From UHGV virus genome UHGV-0121047: a stretch of DNA of 18,551 nt. The stretch is one strand, 5' to 3'. Position numbers and translations under genes: made by a program. The notes beneath the pieces are model-generated. The model was given only the letters and a program-made list of their open reading frames with translations, made no database searches and was not told the origin of the DNA. The stretch comes from a virus. How positions within the stretch are numbered: position 1 is the stretch's first letter; the number at the start of each line of letters is the position of its first letter. Of this stretch, positions 10,867-15,715 are shown one piece after another.

Positions 10867-10943
10867 CTCCGTTTAGCTCAGTTTGGTTTAGCAGCACTTG
10901 CTTTGGGAGCAAGGGGTCGAGGGTTCAAATCCTTCAACGGAGA
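10867..10943 (+). tRNA. tRNA-Pro (anticodon TGG)
   Basis: Hand-folded cloverleaf: 7-bp acceptor CTCCGTT/AACGGAG (C1-G72 as in bacterial tRNA-Pro), anticodon arm CTTGC-TTTGGGA-GCAAG, T-loop GGTTCAAATCC, CCA encoded. Confidence 0.85.
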
Positions 10944-10953
10944 CCAAATTAAT

Positions 10954-11028
10954 GTTCCAGTAGACAAAATGGTATAGTCACCACTCTTTCAAAGTGGATA
11001 TCTGAGGGTTCAAATCCCTTCTGGAACG
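10954..11028 (+). tRNA. tRNA-Glu (anticodon TTC)
   Basis: Acceptor GTTCCAG/CTGGAAC perfect; anticodon arm CCACT-CTTTCAA-AGTGG; T-loop GGTTCAAATCC. Confidence 0.8.
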
Positions 11029-11042
11029 CCAGTTTTGACAGA

Positions 11043-11109
11043 AGACCAATTACAGCAAACTTAATCTTATTCATCTGAAGGTAAATCGGACAAAGAAGAG
11101 ATTTGGTCT
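11043..11109 (+). repeat. Stem-flanked element A (left arm CAGAAGACCAATTACAGCAA, right arm TTGGTCTGG)
   Basis: 7-bp complementary arms 11043-11049 / 11103-11109 enclosing 53 nt; member of a 4-copy family in the tRNA array. Confidence 0.5.
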
Positions 11110-11122
11110 GGTCATTAAGAAT

Positions 11123-11196
11123 TGCGGGTATAGAGAAAGGGCGTCTCACATGTCTCATTAGCATGGTATCGGCAGGTTCGACTCCTGCACCCGCCT
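11123..11196 (+). tRNA. tRNA-Met (anticodon CAT), acceptor with 1:72 mismatch
   Basis: Anticodon arm CATGT-CTCATTA-GCATG, T arm GCAGG-TTCGACT-CCTGC, acceptor TGCGGGT/ACCCGCC (6 of 7 pairs), CCA encoded; initiator vs elongator vs Ile2 identity not resolved. Confidence 0.6.
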
Positions 11197-11209
11197 CCAA
11201 ATTTACAGA

Positions 11210-11268
11210 AGACCGTTTACAGCAATACTTATTAAATTTTTAGCGGAAAAAATTGAAAGATACGGTCT
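11210..11268 (+). repeat. Stem-flanked element B (left arm CAGAAGACCGTTTACAGCAA, right arm ACGGTCTGG)
   Basis: 7-bp complementary arms 11210-11216 / 11262-11268; the 28-nt left flank CAAATTTACAGAAGACCGTTTACAGCAA is repeated exactly at 11689-11716. Confidence 0.5.
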
Positions 11269-11283
11269 GGTAATACTAAACAT

Positions 11284-11357
11284 GGTTAGGAAGCACATAA
11301 GGTATGTGCGGTCGCCTGTTAAGCGAATGGCACAGGGTTCGAATCCCTGACTAACCG
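11284..11357 (+). tRNA. tRNA-Asn (anticodon GTT)
   Basis: D arm GCAC/GTGC, anticodon loop CTGTTAA, T arm CAGGG-TTCGAAT-CCCTG, acceptor GGTTAGG/ACTAACC, CCA encoded. Confidence 0.75.
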
Positions 11358-11369
11358 CCAAATTTAAAT

Positions 11370-11454
11370 GTGTCGTTATCCCGTAGATGGTAGCGGTGGG
11401 GACTGTAAATCCCTTGTCATTGAGACTCGGTAGGTTCGACTCCTACACGGCACA
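11370..11454 (+). tRNA. tRNA-Tyr (anticodon GTA), class II with long variable arm
   Basis: Anticodon arm GGGGA-CTGTAAA-TCCCC, 14-nt variable region, T arm GTAGG-TTCGACT-CCTAC, acceptor GTGTCGT/ACGGCAC, CCA encoded. Confidence 0.75.
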
Positions 11455-11462
11455 CCAACAAA

Positions 11463-11545
11463 GGTTATGTAGTTTAATTTGGTTAAAATACTCCCACGTA
11501 AAAGGATATTGGGAGATGATGTGAGTTCAAGCCTCATCGTAACCG
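11463..11545 (+). tRNA. tRNA-like gene with aberrant anticodon arm (6-bp stem with 13-nt loop); identity undetermined, possible pseudo-tRNA
   Basis: Good acceptor (GGTTATG/CGTAACC), D arm and T arm (GTGAG-TTCAAGC-CTCAT) and CCA, but the anticodon region CTCCCA-CGTAAAAGGATAT-TGGGAG carries about 8 extra nt. Confidence 0.4.
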
Positions 11546-11603
11546 CCAATTTTGAGAGGGCTATTTAGCCCCTCCCTTAAAGAGTTCTTACGAGTATTCT
11601 TTA

Positions 11604-11681
11604 AAGGAGCAGAAGACCAAATTCAGCAAGTTACTTAAAATTTCAAGCCAATTCAATTTTGAAAAATTTAAAACTTGGTCT
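11604..11681 (+). repeat. Stem-flanked element C (left arm CAGAAGACCAAATTCAGCAA, right arm TTGGTCTGG)
   Basis: 7-bp complementary arms 11604-11610 / 11675-11681 enclosing 64 AT-rich nt. Confidence 0.5.
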
Positions 11682-11698
11682 GGCTCAACAAATTTACA

Positions 11699-13801: not shown

Positions 13802-14359
13802 ATGAGATATTTGAAGTATGCTTCATGGATTTTCCTAGCTTTACTAGAACCATTTGCAGCATCCCTAGCAGTCATCTTAGCACCTTTCGTAGTTCCATTC
13901 TACAGTGAGAAGAAAGGACATCTACCTTTTGGATTCAGATGGATGGAGACCTATGACAACCCGATTGATGGTGATGAAGGCCACGTTAAAAGATGGGCTA
14001 AGATTAGAAAGATTGGTAAGCTGGGTGTCTACATGCAGAGAGTTGGATGGCTCTGGAGAAACAAAGCTTATAACTTCTCTTACCATGTACTAGGAAGAGA
14101 TATAAAAGATGTTACTAAGTGGAAAGGTAATATCAACGTAAGTTCTGACCCTGAAGATAATCAGACTGGTTATCTCCTAATGTGGAACAGTAATGCTTGG
14201 GGATTATTCGCTTTTATCCCATCAATTAAAGTCTTTGGTAAACAGTTTTACTGGAGAATTTATATTGGATGGAAACTAAAAAGTGTTGTCCCAGAAGAAA
14301 GAGCACTCTCAAGGGAAAGAGTTATGTTGGCATTCTTTATTCATCCACTGAGAAAGTAA
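13802..14359 (+). CDS. hypothetical membrane protein embedded in the tRNA array (185 aa)
   Basis: ATG 13802 with AAGAGG 11 nt upstream; N-terminal hydrophobic helix (SWIFLALLEPFAASLAVILAPFVVPF); Trp-rich body; flanked on both sides by tRNA genes. Confidence 0.7.
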   Translation: MRYLKYASWIFLALLEPFAASLAVILAPFVVPFYSEKKGHLPFGFRWMETYDNPIDGDEGHVKRWAKIRKIGKLGVYMQRVGWLWRNKAYNFSYHVLGRDIKDVTKWKGNINVSSDPEDNQTGYLLMWNSNAWGLFAFIPSIKVFGKQFYWRIYIGWKLKSVVPEERALSRERVMLAFFIHPLRK

Positions 14360-14367
14360 AGATTTAA

Positions 14368-14440
14368 AGGGGATTAGTTTACAAGGTTAAAACCTCGGTC
14401 TTTGAAATCGAAGAAGTTGGTTCAATTCCAACATCCCCCG
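14368..14440 (+). tRNA. tRNA-Gln (anticodon TTG)
   Basis: Anticodon arm TCGGT-CTTTGAA-ATCGA, T arm GTTGG-TTCAATT-CCAAC, acceptor AGGGGAT/ATCCCCC with unpaired 1:72, CCA encoded. Confidence 0.75.
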
Positions 14441-14445
14441 CCAAT

Positions 14446-14520
14446 GCTCCATTACTCCAATTGGCAGAGAGGCCAGACTTAAAATCTGTGTTATGTATCG
14501 GTTCGAATCCGATATGGAGT
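14446..14520 (+). tRNA. tRNA with Leu anticodon TAA but class I architecture
   Basis: Acceptor GCTCCAT/ATGGAGT, D region CCAATTGGCAGAG shared with the CAA tRNA, anticodon loop CTTAAAA, T arm ATCGG-TTCGAAT-CCGAT, CCA encoded. Confidence 0.6.
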
Positions 14521-14529
14521 ACCAAATTT

Positions 14530-14602
14530 AGCGGTATAGCATAACTGGCAATGCAGCAGCCTCTGAAGCTGTCCTATTAAGGTTCAAATCCTTATGCCGC
14601 TG
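14530..14602 (+). tRNA. tRNA-Gln (anticodon CTG)
   Basis: D arm GCAT/ATGC, anticodon arm GCAGC-CTCTGAA-GCTGT, T arm TAAGG-TTCAAAT-CCTTA, acceptor AGCGGTA/TGCCGCT, CCA encoded. Confidence 0.8.
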
Positions 14603-14636
14603 CCACTTCTAAGGATTCTTACGAGAGTCCTTAAAT

Positions 14637-14709
14637 GTGGCCTTATCATAAATGGTAATGACCCATGCTGTGAACATGGTCTATACGGGTTCAAATCCCG
14701 TAGGTCACC
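14637..14709 (+). tRNA. tRNA-His (anticodon GTG)
   Basis: D arm TCAT/ATGA, anticodon arm CCATG-CTGTGAA-CATGG, T arm ACGGG-TTCAAAT-CCCGT, discriminator C (bacterial His-type), CCA encoded. Confidence 0.8.
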
Positions 14710-14717
14710 CCAATTTA

Positions 14718-14792
14718 TAGTCCAAGTAGCTTATATGGTTAAAGCGCGTGTCTGAAAAACATGAGAAGAGGGTTCAAATCCCACTGGACTAC
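14718..14792 (+). tRNA. tRNA-Phe (anticodon GAA)
   Basis: Perfect acceptor TAGTCCA/TGGACTA, D arm GCTT/AAGC, anticodon arm CGTGT-CTGAAAA-ACACG, T-loop GGTTCAAATCC; 4-nt acceptor-to-D linker, so exact ends are uncertain by 1-2 nt. Confidence 0.65.
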
Positions 14793-14810
14793 CAATTTCA
14801 AAGGTGCTTA

Positions 14811-15545
14811 ATGAAAGAGATGACAGAACAAGGTAAGGAGATTTTTAATCTCTTAAAAACCGGTAAAGGGTTTTCTAACCCACTTATTACTGGTGCAGCA
14901 GTTCTCGGTGGAACCGTAGCTGCCTCTACATCACTTGTAAGCTCTATTAGCTCTGTAACAGACCCTACAATGAAGGAGAAGCTTGTTGCTGCTGGACTTA
15001 CAACAGTCCTTCTAAACAGCTTTACAACAAGCCTGACAAGCACTACAGCAACTACTAAGACCCTAACAGACTATGGTCAAAAGTCTATTGATGAGTTTTC
15101 ATCACGTATGCAGGTAGCAAAGGGATACTCCAATGTTATGGGTGCAGCAGGAGAACAAGTTGGTTGTACACCATTCAGTGGTATTATGGGTGTTGCTACA
15201 GAATATGGTCAAAAAGCTATTGACATGATGAACAGTACACTAGATAGTGTTAATGGTGTGTTAAGTGACTTACAAGACGCTATTGATAAGGGTCTTGATA
15301 CTGTTTCTGATTTGGCTAACCAAGCTGTTAGCAAGATTAATGAAGGTATCTCAAAGATTACAGCTTATGCAGATGAAGTTGTGCAGATGATTGAAGAAGA
15401 AGCTGCCCTTATTGCAGAGTACCTTAAAACGAATATCAATGGGTTCTTAGCAGGTATCTTACCAGACTGGTTTGATGATGCTTGTAAAACTGGTGTAATC
15501 GACACTATTGCAACACCAGAAATGAAGAACGCATTGCAGAAATAA
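14811..15545 (+). CDS. hypothetical Ser/Thr-rich protein embedded in the tRNA array (244 aa)
   Basis: In-frame ATG at 14811 with AAAGG 6 nt upstream; the six-frame ORF start at 14748 would lie inside tRNA-Phe and is rejected; Ser/Thr/Ala-rich N-terminal half, helical C-terminal half. Confidence 0.7.
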   Translation: MKEMTEQGKEIFNLLKTGKGFSNPLITGAAVLGGTVAASTSLVSSISSVTDPTMKEKLVAAGLTTVLLNSFTTSLTSTTATTKTLTDYGQKSIDEFSSRMQVAKGYSNVMGAAGEQVGCTPFSGIMGVATEYGQKAIDMMNSTLDSVNGVLSDLQDAIDKGLDTVSDLANQAVSKINEGISKITAYADEVVQMIEEEAALIAEYLKTNINGFLAGILPDWFDDACKTGVIDTIATPEMKNALQK

Positions 15546-15546
15546 T

Positions 15547-15635
15547 GGAAGATTAACCCTAAAAGGTAAGGGAGCAGTTTGCTAAACTGCCAGTAGCTGA
15601 GAAATCGGTGTACCAGTTCAAGTCTGGTATCTTCC
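15547..15635 (+). tRNA. tRNA-Ser (anticodon GCT), class II
   Basis: Perfect acceptor GGAAGAT/ATCTTCC, anticodon arm GCAGT-TTGCTAA-ACTGC, 19-nt variable arm, T arm ACCAG-TTCAAGT-CTGGT, CCA encoded. Confidence 0.8.
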
Positions 15636-15642
15636 TCCAATT

Positions 15643-15715
15643 TGAATCCGTGACAGAAATGGATATGTGCCTGTCTGCAAAACAGGTTTATAAGGGTTCA
15701 AGTCCCTTCGGATTC
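15643..15715 (+). tRNA. tRNA-Cys (anticodon GCA)
   Basis: Perfect acceptor GAATCCG/CGGATTC, anticodon arm CCTGT-CTGCAAA-ACAGG, T-loop GGTTCAAGTCC, CCA encoded. Confidence 0.8.

Follow-up and report, generated by a model that had tools for sequence, protein, structure and literature searches.

The transfer RNA (tRNA) gene arrays of Salmonella phage Felix O1 and of phage wV8 were described in the genome papers of 2009–2010 with 22 and 23 tRNAs, respectively, and on the basis of codon usage about seven of the Felix O1 tRNAs were proposed to be capable of speeding the translation of AT-rich phage genes; neither transfer-messenger RNA (tmRNA) nor TROVE is mentioned in the Felix O1 paper (PMC3185647). 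We analysed a stretch of 18,551 nucleotides (nt) of the virus genome UHGV-0121047, hereafter termed the window, which carries a corresponding array at positions 10867–15715. This region was matched in 316 phage records, in 239 of them by a single match over at least 80% of its length (80–97% identity), the closest record being phage NBSal004 with 97.2% identity and Felix O1 itself reaching 95.5%. The window is assigned to a virulent, Felix O1-like phage of Felixounavirus (Ounavirinae) because its DNA identity and gene order match those of Felix O1-type phages. The tRNA array as such is already published and adds nothing new. The gaps within this array of a well-known phage hold RNA genes skipped by standard annotation, and we read the entire region as an island of stable-RNA genes, in which tRNAs are accompanied by Ro60-linked elements, a tmRNA-related RNA and aberrant tRNA-like genes; the probability of this reading is estimated at about 0.75. 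It is built on observed sequences, folds, covariation, homology and synteny, from which expression, processing, protein binding, RNA–RNA pairing in vivo and every function discussed below are inferred. All features are compiled in Table 1.

The described counterpart of one of these RNA genes is tmRNA (SsrA; RF00023, RF01849-51, RF04321). The predicted phage RNA, also referred to as tag RNA, shares with it an A-rich tract, a GCA resume codon, a 10-codon tag of the AN(D/E) type with a small hydrophobic end, a helix 5-type helix around the stop and a subsequent pseudoknot, these features being supported by covariation and by weak alignments to four models; the window copy has tandem stops. In contrast to the phage RNA, tmRNA contains a tRNA-like domain composed of acceptor strands, T-arm and CCA, and none of the described tmRNAs possesses a 5′ arm antisense to host tmRNA, as the phage RNA does. 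Behind the promoter the sequence reads UUAGUUUUCGU..., followed 45 nt further on by AAAUAAAU and the tag frame, and the predicted transcription start lies ca. 5–8 nt ahead of a conserved block, UAGUUUUCGU. The encoded tag ANDNVFLAVA is close to the E. coli tag ANDENYALAA and is one of seven distinct 10-codon tags in the family, all conforming to AN(D/E)xxxL(AV/MA)A (the others being ANEEMYLAVA, ANDNTFLAVA, ANEEVYLAVA, ANDAQFLAVA, ANDDVVLMAA and ANEERFLMAA). Among differing codon pairs 33% are synonymous in the tag frame, compared with 6% and 10% in the other two frames, and the variable sites number 4, 6 and 9 at codon positions 1, 2 and 3. The tag frame thus behaves as a coding sequence, given this synonymous bias and the stop positions that shift or vanish in the other frames. 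An alternative small open reading frame (ORF; ATG CAA ACG ...) was rejected, as its stop position varies, it runs on in Erwinia phage Tian and it lacks a Shine-Dalgarno sequence.

Downstream of the tag start, the alignment of the family (A2) outlines a structured 3′ body. A helix formed by 12325–12328 and 12351–12354 joins tag codons 7–8 to a site behind the stop and thereby encloses the stop codons, covarying from CUGG/CCAG to CUGA/UCAG; it is followed by a hairpin (12355–12359/12370–12374), a pseudoknot (12364–12367/12384–12387) and a last hairpin (12395–12400/12416–12421), whose stems are perfectly complementary in eight different versions around the conserved loop GGUAUGAUUAAUAAG. Over the 13 pairs of these helices 96.5% are paired and seven show compensatory changes, whereas slid controls reach 31–54%. 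Of the hallmarks of a one-piece tmRNA, the resume codon, a constrained tag with a degron-like C-terminus, helix 5 around the stop and the downstream pseudoknot are therefore present; no acceptor strand or T-loop was found within 12262–12428, where the promoter ends 5 nt ahead of the conserved 5′ block, no CCA end belongs to the RNA, and in the lambdoid phage HK633 no tRNA-like sequence exists anywhere in 5 kb. Correspondingly low are the Rfam scores, the tag stretch yielding 15.4 bits with the tmRNA and 23.1 bits with the tmRNA_permuted model (gathering score 47); for the window and ten other loci the tmRNA models score 12–31 bits compared with gathering scores of 47–84, although the sub-threshold matches of several models consistently centre on the tag. 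With its default settings ARAGORN reports no tmRNA, be it in the window, in Felix O1 or in any other locus tested. At relaxed settings it returns a permuted tmRNA with the tag ANDNVFLAVA, along with dozens of other permuted tmRNAs and intron-containing tRNAs which are spurious. The permuted alignments of both programs were dismissed, as they borrow the T-arm of tRNA-Met or tRNA-Lys, skip whole tRNA genes and lack a 5′ acceptor strand. An ARAGORN 'ssrA' is mentioned for Felix O1 and Moogle in two genome announcements, which also state that Mushroom lacks it and offer no analysis; the entry is probably the relaxed permuted call reproduced here.

One might suppose that the tag RNA is the coding piece of a genuine two-piece phage tmRNA, its tRNA-like domain being contributed by a separate RNA such as the D-arm-less tRNA-like gene 12462–12544, and that it applies the phage's own tag. 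Both genes adjoin in the window under the common promoter 12229, the tRNA-like gene resembles the tRNA-like domains of tmRNAs in the missing D-arm and, in the window and in Klebsiella phage Spivey, in a G3:U70 pair; the relaxed ARAGORN call and the announced 'ssrA' genes of Felix O1 and Moogle point in the same direction, and two-piece tmRNAs are known in phages (PMC9004378). The two modules are, however, independent of each other: Escherichia phage outra and Spivey possess the tRNA-like gene without the tag RNA, while HK633, VLCpiS13c and Tian show the reverse. Moreover, the pair is G3:C70 in outra, the D-arm-less gene has a conserved UCU anticodon in its loop, promoter and 5′ block leave no acceptor strand between them, default ARAGORN and the Rfam scores given above provide no tmRNA, and the antisense match to host tmRNA described below would be left unexplained. 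We consider a two-piece tmRNA highly improbable.

The spread of the tag RNA is derived from BLAST searches of phage and E. coli records. A core of ca. 125 nt recurs with 71–81% identity both in unrelated phages and among complete E. coli genomes, of which 329 of 5,426 have it, mostly on plasmids of about 100–115 kb. Eleven backgrounds other than the window were compared, namely HK633, where the RNA lies between PR'/qut and the holin gene, SenALZ1 (Ackermannviridae), Cyrano and an identical E. coli plasmid, Tian, VLCpiS13c, B2 and St11Ph5 (Schitoviridae), Sashavirus, the Aeromonas phage pIS4-A and an E. coli O26 prophage; by group, the family is represented in Felix O1-like, lambdoid, Ackermannviridae, Schitoviridae, Sashavirus and Roufvirus phages, on E. 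coli plasmids of ~100 kb which are identical to phage Cyrano in this region, and in E. coli prophages. Promoters equivalent to that of the window precede the homologous RNA in Tian, pIS4-A, VLCpiS13c and Sashavirus. A tmRNA-derived RNA is common to phages of at least six families. Pattern scans were less productive: two tag-based scans of viral contigs gave one unrelated match and none, respectively, the pattern GTTTTCGT-gap-GCGAYTWTGCG proved too loose for genome contigs (the matches listed were chance ones, none with a family-type tag, one with a downstream AND… frame), and 70 matches in metagenome contigs were all due to chance, none having the 5′ block. Surveys report phage tmRNAs only from mycobacteriophages, Bacillus phage G and marine phages (PMC9004378), and literature searches for the tags, tmRNA-like RNAs, phage tmRNAs and RNAs antisense to tmRNA retrieved no description of the tag-RNA family.

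This distribution bears on the view that the tag RNA is a functionless relic, i.e. a fragment of a bacterial ssrA gene with an inverted partial duplication which was acquired by a temperate phage integrating at ssrA and spread by recombination. Fragments of ssrA left at attachment sites carry its 3′ end and not the tag region, and the tag RNA has been retained by virulent phages from six or more families, often with a promoter of its own, and displays a synonymous-biased tag frame, compensatory helices and an invariant 5′ block between varying flanks. Its location in mosaic, non-coding regions would suit such an origin, as would the frequent use of ssrA as a phage attachment site and the ssrA fragments reported in prophages (PMC9004378). 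Altogether, the persistence of a mere relic seems to us quite improbable.

A separate part of the tag RNA is its 5′ arm, located between transcription start and tag frame; these first ~45 nt are colinear antisense to E. coli tmRNA nt ~64–107. The block UAGUUUUCGU has a core, GUUUUCGU, that every member retains unchanged while the flanks vary across the family, and is the exact complement of the ssrA tag codons ACGAAAACUA. In the window and in Tian, GCGUCUAUUUUGC is complementary to ssrA GCAAAAAAUAGUCGC and colinear with this block, and the arm of the O26 prophage, AUAGUUUUCGUCAGAGUUGGCGACUUUGCGGUUUUUUAG, aligns with the reverse complement of ssrA 67–107, GUAGUUUUCGUCGUUUGCGACUAUUUUUUGCGGCUUUUUAC. 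The window arm attains a local alignment score of 35 against antisense ssrA, a value reached by none of 500 shuffled sequences (16.9 ± 3.3); with antisense ssrA 60–110 as target, the arms of seven of eight members beat all 500 shuffles (Cyrano 16/500). The best site predicted by RNAduplex covers ssrA 81–105 in 12 of 12 members, with free energies (ΔG) of -26 to -38 kcal/mol and z-scores of -1.8 to -6.7. For the window arm ΔG is -27.3 with host ssrA versus -15.3 with its own tag region; across the family the latter duplexes amount to -13 to -21 kcal/mol and are about half as stable as those with ssrA. Internal pairing between arm and own tag was therefore discarded as the main role of the arm, given this difference in stability, the complete absence of a complement of UAGUUUUCGU from the phage tags, and the change of the Tian tag start from AAC to AAU while its arm stayed unchanged.

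Several points weigh against a pairing with host tmRNA. The ssrA of E. coli K-12 served as comparison for all members, whatever their host, and the members are related to each other and do not represent independent trials. The energy z-score of the window copy is modest (-2.5), 8% of background 36-mers of the window matching its RNAduplex energy, and the case therefore rests on the colinear alignment and on the positional consistency across the family. Furthermore, a cis helix CUUUG/CAAAG, which in alignment A2 covaries to UUAUG/CAUAA in Shigella phage B2, competes with part of the trans pairing, the overlap with the arm suggesting a possible switch or a competition between two pairings, and a tag frame without a tRNA-like domain leaves its translation unexplained. 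Weighing these data, which come from sequence comparison, we regard the chances that the tag RNA pairs with host tmRNA as evenly balanced.

In this best-supported mechanism, the RNA would cover host tmRNA from the 3′ strand of pseudoknot 1 across the resume codon to tag codons 1–6, and such a duplex at the tag template would be expected to interfere with trans-translation. Either the host tag might simply be blocked, or the RNA's own tag template might be offered in place of that of the host; the second option would explain the coding selection on the tag frame, and we nevertheless judge it rather doubtful. The complete picture, a widespread and undescribed phage RNA family, one half antisense to host tmRNA and the other half a replacement tag template, which silences or rewrites the degradation tag, is consequently put forward as a tentative proposal with somewhat less than even prospects. 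Were it correct, proteins from stalled ribosomes would carry tags ending in ...LAVA or ...LMAA instead of ...ALAA, and the RNA would be the first natural antisense regulator of tmRNA, with tmRNA function split between virus and host. A real pairing would mean that phages manipulate ribosome rescue and tag-directed proteolysis via RNA, and would open the question of why trans-translation matters in infection.

Partial tmRNAs borne by phages have a precedent in mycobacteriophage DS6A, whose 'TLD-only' RNA is thought to inhibit host trans-translation (PMC4131195, PMC11915505). It represents a mirror image of the tag RNA, as it retains the tRNA-like domain and has no tag frame, and its proposed handle is the titration of SmpB and not RNA–RNA pairing. 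A proposed pairing with a host non-coding RNA, on the other hand, is shared with the phage-encoded small RNAs (sRNAs) and anti-sRNAs of lambdoid prophages such as AgvB, AsxR and the Pas sRNAs. In lambdoid phages the tag RNA occupies the same non-coding region between PR' and the lysis genes as these sRNAs. Its target, however, would be tmRNA and not an Hfq-dependent sRNA, and the tag RNA itself stems from tmRNA. Pas sRNAs are found only in Escherichia and Shigella, and the paper describing them makes no mention of tmRNA.

The second described counterpart, the bacterial Ro60 system, concerns the gene upstream of the array and four elements between the first tRNA genes. In bacteria, YrlA RNA genes lie within 4 kb of the Ro60 gene on the same strand and contain a T-arm, an acceptor stem-loop and a D-arm; the underlying survey covered only TROVE-annotated genomes, and Felix O1 is not named in its main text (PMC4201824). 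According to an AlphaFold2 model calculated from a 30-sequence alignment with a predicted local distance difference test (pLDDT) value of 87.9, the 471-residue product of the upstream gene has a Ro60/TROVE plus von Willebrand factor A (vWA) fold, whereas the single-sequence model was useless (pLDDT 44). The model contains both the HEAT-repeat ring and the vWA fold of Ro60 and an invariant MIDAS-like DVSGSM motif. A Foldseek search of the PDB returned exclusively Ro60/TROVE proteins as top nine matches, over the full length with E-values of 6e-8 to 2e-6 and TM-scores of 0.5–0.64, among them Xenopus Ro60, Deinococcus Rsr and the Ro60 of Thermus phage phiLo (2i91, 1yvr, 9kop, 9l5y, 2nvo).

The four elements, E1–E4, start 335–993 nt past the stop codon of this gene on the same strand, all within 0.35–1.1 kb downstream of it, and are built alike, with a 4-bp outer stem, an internal loop AGA/G, a 6–7-bp inner stem AGACC(R)/(Y)GGUCU and a subsequent single-stranded UUNCAGCAA. 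E4 in addition encloses a T-arm (11752–11768), a closed acceptor hairpin ACUCGAC-AGAU-GUCGAGU (11769–11786) and a D-arm GGUGUAAUGGUAGCAC (~11788–11804), and a pattern scan retrieved this module with paired closed acceptor stem, canonical T-loop and D-arm also from the related phages bumzen, REP9 and Felix O1. Among the four only E4 reproduces the YrlA order of closing stem, T-arm, closed acceptor stem, D-arm and closing stem; E1–E3 are shorter and, like YrlB, lack the tRNA-like module, and as in the YrlA/YrlB–Rsr pair all four RNA genes lie within 4 kb of a Ro60-fold gene on its strand. The segment 11752–11815 was at one stage taken for the acceptor piece of a permuted tmRNA, which was dropped for the YrlA-like reading because the same closing stem as in E1–E3 encloses it. 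Yersinia phage P778 encodes a 54% identical Ro60-like protein together with three E-type homologues, the stems of which differ yet remain complementary (GGACUGU/ACAGUCC, GGAUUC/GAAUCC, GGACUC/GAGUCC). In the joint alignment of window and P778 (A3), 94.8% of the cells over 11 stem pairs are paired and eight of the 11 pairs show compensatory changes, compared with 19–38% paired in slid controls. Tian has a comparable tRNA array and neither a Ro60-like gene nor E elements.

Some results are unfavourable to a Ro60/Y-RNA assignment. Sequence-only searches of PDB and Pfam do not connect the 471-residue protein with Ro60, the PDB profile search reaching 1yvp with E=0.91 at best and Pfam at E≤10 reporting DUF2828 and DUF7788 and no TROVE. 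E4 is not matched by the Rfam YrlA model (RF02553) even at E≤10, nor is there a Y_RNA match, and unlike YrlA the E elements lack the 5′ motif GNCGAAN0-1G, their 5′ strand being CAGAAGACC(R). No E-type element was recognised by pattern in the locus of a Vibrio phage whose Ro60-like gene is 46% identical, and the E elements could be mere processing spacers. In the window, moreover, the protein belongs to DUF2828/DUF7788 and four RNA copies interleave with tRNA genes, which distinguishes it from the bacterial system. The spacer interpretation in its explicit form holds that E1–E4 are repeated processing or insulator hairpins (RNase III/RNase E or pause sites) freeing the neighbouring tRNAs, and that the E4 module is a rearranged tRNA pseudogene. 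The elements indeed sit exactly between tRNA genes and plain hairpins fill other spacers too (11575–11610, 12422–12456, 13036–13125, 14606–14636), and the missing Rfam matches and Ro-binding motif would be accounted for. It is difficult to reconcile with the UUNCAGCAA tract and the asymmetric internal loop, which remain fixed despite covariation of both stems between phages that share no more than 54% identity in their Ro60-like proteins, with the joint absence of gene and elements from Tian, and with the intactness of the E4 module in four phages, including a perfectly paired acceptor stem; we rate simple spacers as unlikely, if well within consideration. Our preferred interpretation, which we consider probable to a modest degree, is that E1–E4 are the Y-RNA partners of a phage Ro60 (E4 YrlA-like, E1–E3 YrlB-like) and would form an RNA-surveillance particle with it. 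This would extend the Ro60/Y-RNA system to DUF2828/DUF7788, a family skipped by earlier Y-RNA surveys, and would make a Ro60-fold protein with four candidate Y RNAs accessible in a classic virulent enterobacterial phage with an easily handled host.

Three further genes look like tRNAs and deviate from them in a defined manner. In the tRNA-Asp-derived gene, a homologue of tRNA-Asp(GTC) of Felix O1 and bumzen, the 7-nt anticodon loop CTGTCAC has given way to the 15-nt ACGTAAAAGGATATT, with body, anticodon stem, remaining stems and CCA intact; the 15-nt-loop form is also found in REP9. The relatives annotate this gene variously as Thr(CGT), a second Tyr or 'OTHER'. In the second gene UAUCUCA takes the place of the D-arm; its loop CUUCUAA (UCU, Arg) is fixed, its 20-nt variable region is almost unchanged among homologues, a G3:U70 pair is present and CCA is encoded. 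Near-identical genes exist in Spivey (Demerecviridae; L006 1502–1594) and in outra (Stephanstirmvirinae; L007 1502–1594), the latter with its own TTGACA-17-TATAGT promoter, and the anticodon stems covary (UCUGU/ACAGA, ACGGG/CCCGU, CCUGA/UCAGG); matches of 85–88% identity extend to jumbo phages and other families and for the most part lack annotation. The Felix O1 paper notes a 'missing' AGA decoder, and this gene may be the one, or else a decoy. The third, degenerate gene, reported by neither ARAGORN nor Rfam at default settings, is kept in Felix O1, bumzen and REP9 and recurs in P778 (L020 ~10414–10500), where compensatory changes affect the D-like and the anticodon stem; the 9-nt loop CUUCCAA(C/A)(A/C) is conserved between Felixounavirus and P778. 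Conservation with compensatory change argues that all three genes specify functional RNAs and are not decaying pseudogenes. None of them can be a standard decoder because of the 15-nt loop, the missing D-arm and the 9-nt loop, respectively, acceptor and T arms being retained. Such conserved tRNA look-alikes are candidate decoys or unusual decoders.

It remains to ask whether the region could be explained as a plain tRNA array that serves codon compensation and, above all, replaces host tRNAs destroyed by anticodon nucleases, the odd genes being decaying pseudogenes and the spacers processing signals. According to reports, phage tRNAs can restore infection in the face of tRNA-cleaving defences such as PARIS, and the twenty-one canonical tRNAs of the array comprise Lys(UUU), Glu, Tyr, His and Asn, among others; homing-endonuclease insertions and gene losses in relatives indicate an array in flux, and the codon analysis of Felix O1 agrees with compensation (PMC3185647). 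Decay, however, is not expected to leave odd genes with compensatory stems and fixed loops across genera and even phage families, E1–E4 covary and co-occur with the Ro60-like gene, and the tag RNA has a frame under coding selection and is present in phages without a tRNA array, e.g. HK633. A plain array hence appears to us an unlikely, although not negligible, description of the whole region, and we retain that of a stable-RNA island.

The array proper was called by ARAGORN with 23 tRNA genes that extend from 10867 to 15719, without exception on the + strand, and by the Rfam model RF00005 likewise with 23 genes at the gathering score (E-values 1e-11 to 1e-3). Twenty-one calls are common and two are private to each tool (ARAGORN: Met-CAT 11123–11199 and Tyr 11370–11457; Rfam: 11463–11545 and 12462–12540), giving a union of 25, which rises to 26 with the tRNA-like module inside E4 (11752–11815) and to 27 with the degenerate gene. 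Requiring a cloverleaf at or above the curated threshold and a 7-nt anticodon loop, 23 genes by Rfam and 23 by ARAGORN count as tRNAs, and the 15-nt-loop, the D-arm-less and the uncalled 9-nt-loop genes do not. The canonical genes serve 17 amino acids, with a pair of isoacceptors for each of Lys, Gln and Ser, a trio for Leu and the anticodon CAT in two genes; Arg is represented by the D-arm-less gene only and Asp by the gene with the replaced anticodon loop only. A CCA end is encoded in 24 of 25 tRNA genes. Of the two genes called by ARAGORN alone, Met(CAT) reaches just 15.9 bits in Rfam, with the tRNA-Sec model, and its homologue has a Cove score of 28.9 in the Felix O1 paper, which labels the Tyr homologue 'pseudo' (PMC3185647).

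These calls agree with a first-pass annotation of the window, which had proposed a very large array of about 26 hand-folded genes: its bounds were reproduced within 4 nt or less, the hand-called genes were accepted and not rejected by the automated predictors, and the 17 amino acids, the Lys, Gln and Ser pairs and the two CAT genes were all recovered, along with three Leu isoacceptors. The embedded ORFs it noted, two in number here, belong to conserved families, DUF7338 and DUF7217, the latter annotated in relatives as a putative structural or membrane protein, and the near-consensus sigma70-like promoters it placed at both ends of the first block match 10–11 of 12 consensus positions at 10720, 10811 and 12229. 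The internal promoter closing that block is a true consensus match; what escaped the annotation is that it would drive the tmRNA-related RNA. In the same way most genes are tRNAs or tRNA-like as stated, while the tmRNA-related RNA, the RNA family of the four spacers and the non-decoder nature of the look-alikes were overlooked. Regarding function, which was ascribed to codon-usage mismatch and to the countering of anticodon nucleases, the annotation is borne out in part: the nuclease targets Lys(UUU), Glu, Tyr, His and Asn are present, and Arg is non-canonical in the window. An anti-defence role of the array is plausible from general knowledge, and the look-alikes described above bear on this idea.

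With respect to expression, the island would be transcribed rightward from the host-type sigma70 promoters 10720, 10811 and 12229 ahead of the terminase gene, and the 21 canonical plus two lower-scoring tRNAs would be cut from long precursors by host RNase P and RNase E, supplementing the host pool for AT-rich phage codons in line with the published view on Felix O1. Promoter-like sites are not in excess in the region overall (17 versus 12.2 ± 3.7 in shuffled sequences).

The annotated gene order is identical in the three relatives bumzen, REP9 and Felix O1, leading from an 'RNA-binding / vWFA' protein gene through the tRNA genes with two embedded ORFs to a small ORF and the large terminase. 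Genes and order of the window are those of the Felix O1 cluster (also wV8, Moogle and Mushroom; Felixounavirus), at 95–97% DNA identity; in both, the stretch from the 'RNA-binding protein' gene to the terminase gene includes these two embedded ORFs. A difference to Felix O1 consists in three HNH homing-endonuclease insertions in the array of the latter (locus L005 1899–2384, 2872–3264, 4182–4595), none of which exists in the window; one of them takes out the promoter ahead of the tmRNA-like RNA. In bumzen a single HNH homing endonuclease gene (L001 3189–3587) occupies another insertion point. Felix O1 and bumzen also contain a canonical tRNA-Arg behind Leu(CAA) (L005 5037–5112; L001 4828–4902) which is missing from window 13782–13802, leaving the D-arm-less UCU gene as the sole Arg gene of the window.

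Table 1. Positions of genes, RNA elements and signals in the window
Feature	Position	Strand	Basis or remark
DUF5681	8833–9204		Pfam/PHROG searches
Ro60/TROVE-like protein gene, 471 amino acids	9286–10701	+	Pfam DUF2828 + DUF7788; PHROG 850 'RNA-binding protein'
Sigma70-type promoter-like site TTGACA-17-TAATAT	10720–10748	+	10/12 consensus positions
Sigma70-type promoter-like site TTGACA-18-TAAAGT, TG extension	10811–10840	+	10/12; 27 nt ahead of first tRNA
tRNA-Pro(TGG)	10867–10946	+	ARAGORN; Rfam 54.1 bits
tRNA-Glu(TTC)	10954–11031	+	ARAGORN; Rfam 56.8 bits
E1	11036–11115	+	Outer stem UGAC/GUCA, internal loop AGA/G, inner stem AGACCAA/UUGGUCU, conserved 5′ UUACAGCAA; minimum free energy (MFE) fold
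tRNA-Met(CAT)	11123–11199	+	ARAGORN only, low score; U at position 37, 1:72 mismatch
E2	11203–11274	+	MFE fold, covariation
tRNA-Asn(GTT)	11284–11360	+	ARAGORN; Rfam 48 bits
tRNA-Tyr(GTA)	11370–11457	+	ARAGORN; under Rfam tRNA gathering score (29.6 bits to tRNA-Sec)
tRNA-Asp-derived gene	11463–11548	+	Rfam 45 bits with 15-nt loop; aligned to tRNA-Asp of Felix O1 and bumzen
E3	11607–11687	+	Outer stem GAGC/GCUC; MFE fold, covariation
E4, YrlA-like	11694–11831	+	Closing stem as in E1–E3; MFE fold
Long imperfect hairpin CATCTTTGCAGTA ... TACTGCAAAGATG	11833–11975	+	Read from sequence
tRNA-Lys(TTT)	11979–12054	+	ARAGORN, Rfam
tRNA-Met(CAT)	12059–12135	+	ARAGORN, Rfam
tRNA-Ile(GAT)	12138–12213	+	ARAGORN, Rfam
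Sigma70-type promoter TTGACA-17-TATAGT, region's best	12229–12257	+	11/12 consensus positions
tmRNA-related RNA, ~165 nt	12262–12428	+	Predicted, driven by promoter 12229
5′ arm of tmRNA-related RNA	12262–12306	+	Colinear antisense to E. coli ssrA nt ~76–107 in the window copy
Tag frame GCA AAC GAC AAT GTT TTT CTG GCA GTA GCT TGA TAG (ANDNVFLAVA, two stops)	12307–12342	+	Sequence; relaxed ARAGORN
Structured 3′ body	12325–12421	+	Alignment A2
D-arm-less tRNA-like gene	12462–12544	+	Rfam 33.4 bits, D-arm deleted; no ARAGORN call
Degenerate tRNA-like gene	12689–12766	+	9-nt loop CUUCCAACA, acceptor GGGACG/CGUCCC, short T-arm
tRNA-Ser(TGA)	12783–12872	+	ARAGORN, Rfam; sole tRNA without encoded CCA
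tRNA-Leu(TAG)	13127–13204	+	ARAGORN, Rfam
tRNA-Lys(CTT)	13212–13287	+	ARAGORN, Rfam
tRNA-Ala(TGC)	13294–13369	+	ARAGORN, Rfam
tRNA-Gly(TCC)	13376–13450	+	ARAGORN, Rfam
tRNA-Thr(TGT)	13457–13533	+	ARAGORN, Rfam
tRNA-Val(TAC)	13629–13703	+	ARAGORN, Rfam
tRNA-Leu(CAA)	13705–13782	+	ARAGORN, Rfam
Embedded ORF, 185 amino acids, DUF7338 / PHROG 2143	13802–14359	+	'Phage conserved protein' in Felix O1
tRNA-Gln(TTG)	14368–14443	+	ARAGORN, Rfam
tRNA-Leu(TAA)	14446–14524	+	ARAGORN, Rfam
tRNA-Gln(CTG)	14530–14605	+	ARAGORN, Rfam
tRNA-His(GTG)	14637–14712	+	ARAGORN, Rfam
tRNA-Phe(GAA)	14719–14794	+	ARAGORN, Rfam
Embedded ORF, 244 amino acids from ATG, DUF7217 / PHROG 2114	14811–15545	+	Pfam, PHROG
tRNA-Ser(GCT)	15547–15639	+	ARAGORN, Rfam
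tRNA-Cys(GCA)	15644–15719	+	ARAGORN, Rfam; array end
Terminator-like hairpin GCCCTG...CAGGGC + T6	15757–15816	+	By eye, after array
Terminator-like hairpin GACGGTCTCTGTGCCGTC + T6	15882–15905	+	After array
Terminase gene	16149–17765		Place in order as in relatives

Additional hairpins and tRNA-like fragments were encountered around these genes. The long imperfect hairpin behind E4 is covered by just 60 of 252 records and thus confined to a subset of relatives; its part GCAGTAGCTTATGTGGCTAA (11840–11870) resembles the end of the tag frame together with its downstream flank (GCAGTAGCTTGATAGGCTAA, 12325–12355) and could, judged by this resemblance, be the remnant of a second copy of the tag RNA. 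The plain spacer hairpins between the tRNA blocks mentioned above are of a common type (CTTTAAAG / CTTCTAAG ... CTTAGAAG / CTTTAAAG) and may be processing or pause signals; one of them gives weak microRNA-precursor-like Rfam matches, which merely reflect a long hairpin. A repeated hairpin module of the form CACAACAGGTAAGAGCATT ... variable ... AGTGCTCTT(T/A)(C/T)CGTTGTGG borders the tmRNA-like RNA of lambdoid and other phages and is at times present as several copies (L003 2370–2440 and 2615–2720, L011 806–890, L014 790–880, L017 375–450, L005 ~2795–2860), and Felix O1 has a piece of its interior, CCCTTATGGGGCTTGGCTTAAATGCA, in the stretch from the tmRNA-like RNA to the D-arm-less gene.

In P778, which has no member of the RNA family with the 5′ arm, a tRNA-like RNA of ~115 nt (L020 10141–10260) combines an acceptor GGUCUGU/GCAGACC and a canonical T-arm with an insert of ~80 nt containing AAAUGUGUAGCUUGAUGG, reminiscent of a tag end. 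St11Ph5 encodes a 72-nt 'tRNA-Ala(CGC)' (L013 275–346) with an 8-bp acceptor stem and a 3-bp D-stem ca. 110 nt upstream of the start of its tmRNA-like RNA (L013 457), the best Rfam match being tRNA-Sec with a sub-threshold 30 bits. In SenALZ1 (L004 2050–2870), unannotated fragments containing a T-arm, such as GTGGTTCGATTCCAC, GAAGGTTCGAGTCCTTC and GGGTTCGACTCCC, crowd the tmRNA-like RNA and are not called by ARAGORN.

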